A DNA stretch of 64,000 nucleotides from Fistulifera solaris. Its lineage: Eukaryota. The stretch spans positions 1,922,001 through 1,986,000 of the forward strand of contig AP026124.1 of assembly GCA_030295235.1 (NCBI GenBank). Direction: 5' to 3'. A program made the position numbers and the translations under genes. Positions 58,614 through 61,245 of the stretch are shown here, piece by piece. The notes beneath the pieces were generated by a model. That model was not told where the DNA came from. It did not search any database and worked only from the letters and a program-made list of their open reading frames with translations. Each line of letters opens with the position of its first letter. Within the stretch, counting starts at the first letter, position 1.

Positions 58614-59041
58614 ATGAAGTTGTCTACTTCGTCGGCTTTTCTTGATTGTGTTTTCCTTCCGTCAAACAGGATCGTGTGGTTTCATGACGCACGCCACTAC
58701 CGCTCCCACTCCCCCTGTCGGCGGCCACAAACAAAGAAGAAGAAGAAAAAGAAGAAGAATTATCATCGCAGATTCCTTTGTTACCGGAAGCAGATCCGAA
58801 TGCTAATATTCCTCGAATCAATTTGGGCGAGACGATACGATTTGAAGAGATGGGACCGATTATTCTCAATTTGGATGGTTCGACACGTCGTATCGCCAAT
58901 TGGGATCAAATGACAGAGCACGAGCGACAAGTCACCTGGCGTCGTATTAGTAAGCGCAATGAGGAAAGGAGACAGCTTCTATTGCAGCAGCAGCAGCAAC
59001 AAGAACAACAAGATGCAGCGGAAGCTGAAAATGAGCTTTAG
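58614..59041 (+). CDS. Small conserved hypothetical protein (N-terminus frameshifted)
   Basis: EEMGPIILNLDGSTRRIANWDQMTEHERQVTWRRISKRN resembles a widespread uncharacterised eukaryotic family. Poly-Q tail. Confidence 0.6.
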
Positions 59042-59107: not shown

Positions 59108-61245
59108 TTAGGAAGAAACGACTCTCATTGCTATTACGTGTGCACCTCCAGCGGCCACCCTCAGTCGTGATATGTCTTCGGGATAACCGGGAATGAGAGG
59201 GACAAGTGCACCCAAGGCTTGAGTGAGCTGATGCGCATCATCCGTAGAACCATTGGCCAAGTTCCCGTGTTCGTTCCAACCACAACCCCAGATGCGATCT
59301 TTCGCATCGACCAGTACTGTAGACTCCGAACCGCAATCCAGTGATTCAATCGCAGCGGAGTGATCCTGGAAGAGATACGTAGGCCGTGTGACACAACTTG
59401 TATCCGCCAGACCCAGTTGGCCTTTATCGTTTCGTCCCCACCCCCAAACTACTGTTTGATTGTCGTCATTTTGCGCTAACACAACGGTATGAGACCATCC
59501 GCAGTGAATCGTTTGCACTCTCCATGTGCTGCCCATTTCCACCAGTCCCGGACTTGGGTCTGCCTTGTTTCGAGTTTCTCGACCTAATTGACCATATTGA
59601 TTGTCGCCAAACGTCCACACTCGGCCTTTCTCATCCAAAGCTACTGTGTGTCTCCTTCCACATACTACTTGAAGGATGCTCGAGTCACTGGGCGTCCAAG
59701 AACTTCCCTCTAAACATTGACCAAACTTGCGGCATCCAAAGGTAATGAGTTGGCCGTCTTTGGTGACACATGCGGAGTGAAAGAGTCCAGCGGCTACCTC
59801 TTTAAACATATCATTTTTGTAAAGTGCGATTTCCTTTGCCTCAAATATAGACAGAGATTTCTTATCGATTTGTCCGTTCACTTGTCCCCGGCTGTTGTCG
59901 CCAAAGGCAAACAATTTTCCCGTCCCCCGTTCCAGGACCAGCGTATGAGAGAATCCCAGTGCCACTTTGTCGACCACTATTTGTGCGAGCGGCTGGATCG
60001 GGCGGATCGGTAACGGCGAGTCTGACACGCCGGGAGTCATTCCCAGTTGTCCATGTTCGTTCCATCCCCACAAATACAATCGACCTTCTTGGGTCAAAAG
60101 CGCACTGTGACCACCTCCTGCGTAAATTCCCGTAGATGGATCGGACCGTCGGGAGATGCACAACACGGATTCTGTCATGAAATAAACGTCTTCTCCCTGG
60201 TGCAGATCACCGACCGCATCTTTCAATAGCAATTGATTGTGTTGATTGGAACCCGCCGCAACGAAGAAGAACAACGTGGCATCGCGTTGAAACGTTTTGG
60301 TCATGGATGAGAGAATGTACGTATCATCAAAGAGTTGTTCCATTTGGGACGCCGCCGTGGATGATTCTAAAAAGGCATCCAATTGGTGTAAGTATTCATG
60401 ATTGGTGCCACTGGGACCGACGGCGACCGACAGGACGGCTTGGAATGGGTGAGCTGTTACAGGTTACAGTGCGAGCCACTGCACACCATCCACGTCCTAC
60501 TTACCCGCAGCAAACGGTAAATCACGTAACACTCGAGGCCATATGGCGGGATTGTCCAAAGTCCCTCGATACAACAAGGCTTGCAATACGTCACCCGTTT
60601 GATCGTCAATGACATCAATCACATCCCTGGCGTAACCCTTCCGAAATGAGTCAGTACACGTGGAGCTCCATCACTATTCAACAATGTTTGCACAACTTAC
60701 ACCCTTTTCTCGAAAATCCAATTCCGCCAAACATTCGTCCACGAGTTCCGACGGCACTTCGTACACCAGTCCTTCGGTAAAGGTCGGCGAGTCATAGTCC
60801 AACGATCGCAGTTGCCGCACTTCTTGATCTTTCAGCAAGGTACACACAATTCCTGGAAAGGACGGAACTCCTCGATGATCGGTACTTTTTGCGCCCAACA
60901 CCGACGGTATCCTCGTGCCTTCGCGGGACGATGGTGGACTGACGCATGCGCGAGGGCCCCCGCTCCTGGGTTCCAACACAATGATCCGTATCCAAAGAGA
61001 CGCAAACAACCTTGATTCTGTTCGATTAGCTCTTGAACGGCGGCATGTTCTGGTACAATTCCACCAACGTATATCTGTGCGACTGGATCCCAGACCGGTG
61101 TGCCTTCTTCTGTTGTGGGTTGCATCTGACGCGTGGTCGACAACGGATGATGATGATGATGATGATTCGTCCAGCAAAATATCAGCGCGGGGAGTGTAGC
61201 GACAATCAACACGAAGCGAGGAAACAGATATTGCGATGCAGGCAT
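59108..61245 (-). CDS. ChaC-family gamma-glutamylcyclotransferase fused to an RCC1-repeat beta-propeller
   Basis: LFGYGSLCW, STDHRG.P.FPG.V.TL, LDFREKGGY, GPSGTNHEYL. Introns 60638..60700 and 60439..60504 splice in frame into the ORF with repeated G.N..GQLG / V.CG..H motifs. Missing base at 60886-60890. Confidence 0.85.

Follow-up and report, generated by a model that had tools for sequence, protein, structure and literature searches.

We analyzed a 64,000-nt stretch (hereafter the window, to which all coordinates refer) of contig AP026124.1 (GCA_030295235.1) of Fistulifera solaris, an oil-rich pennate diatom. On its minus strand lies a gene in which a ChaC domain, the domain of a family of glutathione-degrading enzymes, is joined in a single chain to an RCC1-like propeller. 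Our scripted gene model has three exons and starts at the ATG at 61245, the first in-frame ATG downstream of an upstream stop. The features of the gene, in the order of transcription, are as follows:

61245-59108, minus strand: complete coding sequence of the fused ChaC-RCC1 gene, three exons, 669 amino acids
61245-60701, minus strand: exon 1, with the presequence, a conserved N-terminal hairpin and the first part of ChaC (FGYGSL, STDHRG, LDFREKG)
61245-61126, minus strand: putative presequence, residues 1-40, a hydrophobic stretch and then an acid-free stretch of His, Ser, Thr and Arg; disordered in the structure model
61164-61147, minus strand: (CAT)6 repeat encoding HHHHHH, within the presequence
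61125-61123, minus strand: second in-frame ATG (Met41), where short forms of the orthologues begin
60999-60329, minus strand: ChaC domain (PF04752), residues 83-263; the span includes both introns
60886-60890, minus strand (T5 on the plus strand): A5 homopolymer, one base short in the window, causing an apparent frameshift; six A give WAQKSTDHRG
60700-60638, minus strand: intron 1, 63 nt, GTAAGT..AG, splitting REKG from GY
60637-60505, minus strand: exon 2, middle part of ChaC, residues 183-226
60504-60439, minus strand: intron 2, 66 nt, GTAAGT..AG
60438-59108, minus strand: exon 3, with the end of ChaC (GPSG.N..YL), a linker helix and the whole RCC1-like propeller; TAA at 59110-59108
60259-59129, minus strand: predicted RCC1-like seven-blade propeller (PF25390), residues 287-663

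Gene model, reading frame and transcripts

Exon 3 is contained in a single open frame of 451 codons (59108-60463 in a stop-to-stop frame listing), and between the last ChaC motif, GPSG.N..YL, and the RCC1 repeats, which share this exon, there is neither a stop nor an intron. The exon 1 frame that opens at the ATG at 61245 encodes the hydrophobic N-terminus, the six His residues and FGYGSL, while STDHRG and LDFREKG are read in a frame offset by one base. Splicing the model and adding one A to the A5 run gives the exact translation of a database protein of 669 amino acids (P0001), which a protein database search with exon 3 matched at 100% identity over that exon. This protein is FisN_12Hh233 of F. 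solaris, a hypothetical protein at NCBI to which UniRef gives the name glutathione-specific gamma-glutamylcyclotransferase. In other words, the fusion is already present as an annotated gene model of F. solaris. An earlier note on this DNA, made from the sequence alone, had described two canonical introns after which ChaC runs in frame into RCC1 repeats; the gene model and the Pfam matches agree with that description, and the junction figures given there (60505/60438) are exact.

The same note had reported a frameshift within the gene. It is really there in the window, in which the A-run has five A, but it is not a feature of the gene: P0001 reads WAQKSTDHRG, the six-A form. To the window we aligned Logan contigs of four public sequencing runs. 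An extra T behind 60885 is found in two contigs of run X1 (depth 56 of 83.7), one of them identical to the window at all other letters, the second differing at 13 of 172 letters and presumably derived from the second subgenome copy. The extra T is also found in all four covering contigs of run X3 (depth 26.5 of 26.5), a wetland metagenome with a relative about 92% identical to the window. X1 possibly comes from the same sample as the assembly, so that the organism is not independent; its contigs were nonetheless rebuilt from reads. Around the site, 113 orthologues all stay in frame and show no variation at Q119, S121 or D123. Because the extra base is present in read-derived contigs, and because the orthologues are in frame with invariant flanking residues, we conclude that the frameshift is an assembly error, with a base missing from a homopolymer run. 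Pyrosequencing is prone to homopolymer miscounts. The F. solaris genome was first analyzed by pyrosequencing, according to a preprint abstract (bioRxiv 10.1101/2021.11.10.468027).

None of the runs is recorded as RNA, and for X1, X2 and X5 the RNA status was guessed only. X1 is DNA-like, its contigs passing through both introns unchanged, and X5 gave no contig matching the stretch. X2 is RNA-like: one contig ends in 20 A at 59118, and one, from a copy about 93% identical, omits 60635-60699 but has 2 letters in their place, for a net loss of 63 nt, the exact size of intron 1. Another X2 contig matches 59498-59698 without difference. Given this behaviour of X2, transcription seems to occur from both gene copies, and the splicing of intron 1 is confirmed. 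Spliced intron 2 was not seen in any contig of the four runs.

Three mis-called metagenome proteins of relatives touch on the same introns: P0176 and P0177 continue into intron sequence where F. solaris has intron 2 (after ..AA(A/G)), and P0180 reads through an intron at the position of intron 1 (after REKG). From these sequences, both intron positions seem to be conserved among diatoms. The 20-A loose end at 59118, for its part, looks like the poly(A) site of a convergent neighbour gene, for which the plus strand holds an open frame at 58688-59041 (117 amino acids, without a Pfam match). The 3' end of that neighbour would overlap the last 11 coding bases of the ChaC-RCC1 gene (59108-59118).

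An enzyme domain and a propeller in one chain

On the whole protein, PF04752 scored 103.7 bits (cut-off 21) and covered profile positions 3-167 of 176. On the exon pieces, the second half of exon 1 scored 35.5 bits against the same cut-off and its first half 16.5 bits, below it, while the 48-aa exon 2 piece alone had no Pfam match. The ChaC part matched human ChaC2 (6k95) at an expectation value (E) of 1.1e-17 and yeast GCG1 (5hwi) at 1.8e-17, in both cases over the whole domain. In PMC7022552, the pocket of human ChaC2 is described as Tyr6-Gly7-Ser8, His39, Arg40, Tyr87, Tyr109 and Tyr144, two Glu residues are pointed out, Glu83, which is conserved and catalytic, and in addition Glu74, and the YGSL motif of the gamma-glutamylcyclotransferase (GGCT) fold is named. 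With these assignments, the pocket aligns to Y86, G87, S88, H124, R125, Y184, Y205 and Y242 of the diatom protein, Glu83 to E180 and Glu74 to E171. FGYGSL comprises residues 84-89, and E180 lies within LDFREKGGY, where a catalytic-type Glu had already been recognized in the earlier note. All 113 fusion proteins have Y86, G87, S88, H124, R125, E180, Y184, Y205 and Y242.

Mean column conservation, computed over these 113 aligned fusions, is highest in the ChaC core (0.72), followed by the hairpin ahead of it (residues 50-66; 0.68), the propeller (0.56) and the linker (0.29). Neither ChaC2 nor GCG1 has a counterpart of this hairpin. We considered whether it might supply the closing strand of the propeller, and did not adopt this idea, since residues 280-669 already hold seven of each propeller motif. 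Taken together, the alignments make it most likely that the ChaC domain is a working glutathione-specific gamma-glutamylcyclotransferase. Human CHAC2 and CHAC1 and yeast GCG1 (6k95, 6ky0, 5hwi) share with it YGSL, STDHRG, the Glu of REKGGY and the three pocket tyrosines. They differ from it in being single-domain proteins of 181-240 residues, whereas the diatom protein has 669 and carries the propeller, the presequence and the hairpin at 50-66. The usual form of ChaC, which is small, single-domain and cytosolic, is thus not the form found here, and the contrast that had been drawn with such enzymes is a fair one, the solved ChaC chains all falling within 181-240 residues. The Arabidopsis enzymes GGCT2;1 to 2;3 are ChaC-like and serve glutathione turnover and cysteine recycling; they represent the same family in a photosynthetic eukaryote, are single-domain and cytosolic, and are not known to carry a propeller.

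For the second domain, of the RCC1-like family (PF25390, PF00415), WD40_RLD (PF25390; cut-off 150) scored 237.7 bits on the whole protein and 239.4 bits on exon 3, and seven motifs of the GxNxxGQLG type and seven of the VxxGxxH type can be read in the sequence. A phmmer comparison with solved RCC1-like chains gave E values down to 4e-35. We built an AlphaFold2 model with the 113-sequence alignment. Structure prediction had been proposed in the earlier note, and it yielded a mean predicted local distance difference test (pLDDT) of 89.9 and a predicted template modelling score (pTM) of 0.89 for the whole chain, about 28 strands after residue 280, and disorder only at residues 1-39 (pLDDT <50). 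Because a pTM of 0.89 is high for a two-domain chain, the two domains are predicted to stand in a fixed relative position.

A Foldseek search of the PDB with the model gave template modelling (TM) scores by target of 0.75-0.81, with E down to 9e-28, to the RCC1-like domain (RLD) of RPGR, UVR8, RCC1 and an RLD of HERC2, and no solved chain extending over both domains (best TM by query 0.47). The propellers of RPGR (4jhn), UVR8 (4dnw, 6xzl), HERC2 (7q40, 3kci) and RCC1 (1a12, 1i2m) have seven blades in common with the diatom one, and none of them, unlike the diatom protein, is joined to ChaC. A more distant likeness is the RCC1-repeat subunit of Tetrahymena mitochondrial complex IV (7w5z, 8b6h, 8gym), in which an RCC1-like propeller serves as a structural binding module in an organelle. 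For a propeller that follows a targeting sequence it serves as a precedent, although the match is weaker (E 1e-12, TM by target 0.65) and the subunit is not fused to an enzyme. In the diatom propeller, the residues that never vary are Gly, His and Gln with structural roles in the repeat; they are uninformative about a partner.

Distribution of the fusion among diatoms

A search with the ChaC part for proteins of 367-1171 residues returned 136 matches. RCC1 Pfam domains are present in 115 of the best 120, and the other five are cut-off or intron-read-through gene calls of the same fusion gene. Two of these five keep the first propeller motif, one of them also reading through an intron at the intron 1 position, and three continue into intron sequence, in two cases at the position of intron 2. 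Among the matches listed, all those with organism names are diatoms (17 organisms in the ChaC-part search and 2 in the exon 3 search), spanning raphid pennates, Thalassiosirales, Attheya and a rhizosolenioid, with no fusion from Phaeodactylum or from outside the diatoms. Both domains are present in seven transcript-derived orthologues (P0027, P0077, P0132, P0175, P0111, P0140 and P0152). Four of these have an organism whose taxids were checked (Entomoneis paludosa, Pseudo-nitzschia pungens, Attheya septentrionalis and Dactyliosolen fragilissimus), and the three others are MMETSP rows marked 'complete'.

Many database matches look like one half of the protein. In the exon 3 search, 47 of the 120 matches listed have no ChaC Pfam domain. 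Of these 'RCC1-only' matches, 40 begin with the ChaC end motif GPSG.N and the remaining 7 within the family-specific linker. The 'ChaC-only' matches cover 57-81% of the query and often lie on a contig equal in size to that of an 'RCC1-only' match. Judging from these sequences, the apparent separate halves are artefacts of prokaryote-style gene calls cut at introns. For free-standing ChaC relatives, the best 120 matches gave only exon 1 fragments of the fusion gene. The earlier note had considered that a stop between two genes might have been lost here by assembly error; the orthologues have the fused architecture, and ChaC and RCC1 as separate genes were not seen among the matches listed.

A maximum-likelihood tree of 19 named sequences has a single branch (support 100/99) that divides 11 raphid pennates from 8 centrics, and also recovers Bacillariaceae and Thalassiosirales. 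The tree fits vertical inheritance from an early diatom, and the fusion appears to have been kept since before the split of pennates and centrics. In the ESM Atlas, one shown cluster combines ChaC with RCC1; it has 79 members, with Bacillariophyta the commonest phylum among the 40 for which the phylum is known. A profile search of 1.84 billion representatives found about 21 full-length single-stretch fusions among 150 listed, four of them new, with ChaC and RCC1 domains confirmed by Pfam in all four; the listed matches are dominated by giant multi-RCC1 proteins and give no view of non-diatom fusions.

Two database models depart from the common architecture. P0170, a Thalassiosira pseudonana model of 571 amino acids, jumps from ..DLTYAAG directly to SNEHNQLLL and is without the closing GPSG.N..YL part of ChaC as well as the linker helix, both of which are present in all 113 aligned fusions; it looks like a mis-spliced gene model. 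P0324 (1248 amino acids) has about 500 extra residues before ChaC, with ChaC at 558-749 and the propeller at 799-1244; with E allowed up to 0.001, Pfam gives no further domain. This protein may be a longer variant, or else the product of merging gene models.

The earlier note knew of no described fusion of this kind. A full-text literature search, which did not cover subscription journals and supplements, indeed found no publication on a ChaC-RCC1 fusion, but the gene is annotated as FisN_12Hh233, and the fusion occurs across diatoms and is not peculiar to this locus. The architecture is, moreover, already visible in public databases, and both domains are ordinary members of well-known families, so that this is not a new kind of system. 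What is new here is the survey of presequences and the conserved second Met across the orthologues.

The two start codons and their interpretation

The hydrophobic N-terminus and the HHHHHH that follows it, as described in the earlier note, are both present; the six His are only a local (CAT)6 repeat, found in none of the other 70 long orthologue N-termini. We therefore rejected the His run as a metal-binding feature, considering that it is not conserved among orthologues. In the run alignment, reads are cut at a skipped repeat in this region (61136-61176). The presequence reaches a maximum Kyte-Doolittle mean of 2.74 over 11 residues at positions 12-22, and its column conservation is 0.14. 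Similarity of the contigs of the second copy (X1) and of the metagenome relative (X3) ends exactly at 61125, the first base of the second ATG, in joint and loose ends alike, so that the mature protein is conserved and the presequence DNA has diverged past 90% matching.

For the survey, we assigned the 113 full-length fusions to a presequence class if more than 30 residues precede the conserved Trp (W52), which is the case in 71, with 30 or fewer in 42. As a crude test of hydrophobicity, an N-terminus was called signal-like if an 11-residue Kyte-Doolittle mean of at least 2.0 occurs within the first 45 residues; by this crude measure, 43 of the 71 long N-termini are signal-like, with F. solaris reaching 2.74. 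Diatom plastid presequences consist of a signal peptide followed by Phe, Trp, Tyr or Leu after the cleavage site (the 'ASAFAP' motif), and in 29 of the 43 signal-like orthologues a pair of [ASGC] and Phe follows soon after the hydrophobic stretch. In F. solaris the nearest cleavage candidate is Cys24-Trp25, and Ala20-Leu21 is possible. Asp and Glu together make up 3% of the presequences, as against 13-15% after the second Met. The presequences of close relatives are alike in frame, which argues for translation. On these grounds, the plastid or secretory localization that the earlier note had put forward gains some support and is plausible for the long form.

An internal Met occurs 5-28 residues before W52 in 56 of the 71 long forms, where the background Met frequency would lead one to expect 30%, and the 42 short forms begin in this same range of 5-28 residues. 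This coincidence suggests two isoforms made from two starts.

We therefore favour, with a probability of roughly 0.7, the reading that the gene encodes an intact, conserved two-domain glutathione-degrading enzyme of diatoms, in which the propeller is a binding platform, the long form is targeted and the short form is cytosolic. The ChaC domain would turn glutathione into 5-oxoproline and Cys-Gly, and its C-terminal helix would lead directly into the seven-blade propeller, held against ChaC. The propeller would act as a binding platform and not as a Ran exchange factor; by way of a partner, either a protein or a ligand, it would tether glutathione breakdown or gate it. The presequence would send the long form to the secretory or plastid route, and the conserved second start codon would additionally yield a cytosolic form. 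A bolder version, which we regard as doubtful, holds that in diatoms generally the long form resides in the plastid or the surrounding lumen of the endoplasmic reticulum and the short form in the cytosol, with a rigid propeller switching glutathione breakdown by partner binding.

Several observations weigh against the favoured reading. With respect to targeting, 42 of the 113 orthologues are without any presequence, the F. solaris N-terminus contains no pair of a small residue and Phe, and many N-termini come from automatic gene calls that were extended to the most upstream start codon. The binomial p of the Met enrichment, about 1e-17, is overstated, related sequences having been treated as independent. 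With respect to the enzyme, the position of E171 (ChaC2 Glu74) is occupied by Glu in 61 of 113 fusions, by Asp in 20 and by other residues in 32. Further, human ChaC2 and yeast GCG1 have an Arg in the motif PGRV, which in the diatom fusions is Ile (81), Leu (24) or Val (8), and thus replaced in 113 of 113. Considering that this Arg is replaced in all fusions, substrate handling may differ; no stated role for it was found in the portion of PMC7022552 at hand. With respect to the chain as a whole, the predicted fixed arrangement of the domains draws on the pTM and on no other measure, and the single-sequence model of the ESM Atlas is weaker (pTM 0.66, pLDDT 0.73). Finally, in the runs examined, no RNA-like F. 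solaris contig bridges the boundary between ChaC and the propeller, and the case for a continuous transcript there is made by the single exon that spans it and by the transcript-derived orthologues.

The frameshift present in exon 1 of the window, together with the many matches that look like 'ChaC-only' or 'RCC1-only' proteins, could be taken to mean that the gene is an artefact or a pseudogene, with neighbouring genes joined through faulty assembly or annotation, or with a gene put out of action by the frameshift. We regard this as extremely improbable: contigs assembled from the reads of two runs have the extra base, the domain boundary lies within one exon without a stop, and the seven transcript-derived orthologues are full fusions. 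The halves, moreover, bear the marks of a divided gene, with 40 of the 47 'RCC1-only' matches (among 120 listed) starting with GPSG.N and 7 in the linker, and with 'ChaC-only' matches that are prokaryote-style calls cut at introns. Hardly more probable is a genuine guanine-nucleotide exchange activity of the propeller towards a small GTPase, with ChaC coupling that signalling to the glutathione level. The similarity to RCC1 itself, in sequence and in fold, speaks for this idea, but the match is as good or better with the propellers of RPGR, UVR8 and HERC, none of which is an exchange factor for Ran, and the invariant residues of the propeller are the structural Gly, His and Gln.

An idea that we also consider unlikely, if less so than these two, concerns the substrate: instead of free glutathione, ChaC would take a gamma-glutamyl group on a peptide (phytochelatin, for example) or on a protein (for example a glutathionylated one), and the propeller would be the substrate receptor that holds it in place. 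Mammalian CHAC1 ('Botch') reportedly acts on a protein substrate, Notch. The propeller is predicted to be fixed on the enzyme (pTM 0.89), and the replacement of the PGRV Arg in 113 of 113 fusions hints at an altered substrate pocket. Against this, all the named residues of the ChaC2 glutathione pocket are invariant, and the propeller is without a known partner.

In every compartment of the cell the redox state is set by glutathione, and work on diatoms has tied the glutathione state of the chloroplast to the fate of stressed cells. ChaC enzymes provide the known route by which glutathione is broken down in the cytosol; in other organisms they are small proteins that stand alone, and other eukaryotes regulate them mainly by transcription. 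If the bolder version is true, diatoms would control their glutathione pool post-translationally and compartment by compartment, in a way that other eukaryotes do not. The fusion points to a lineage-specific placing or control of glutathione turnover in diatoms, and provides a concrete gene for work on diatom sulfur recycling, metal stress and redox signalling.

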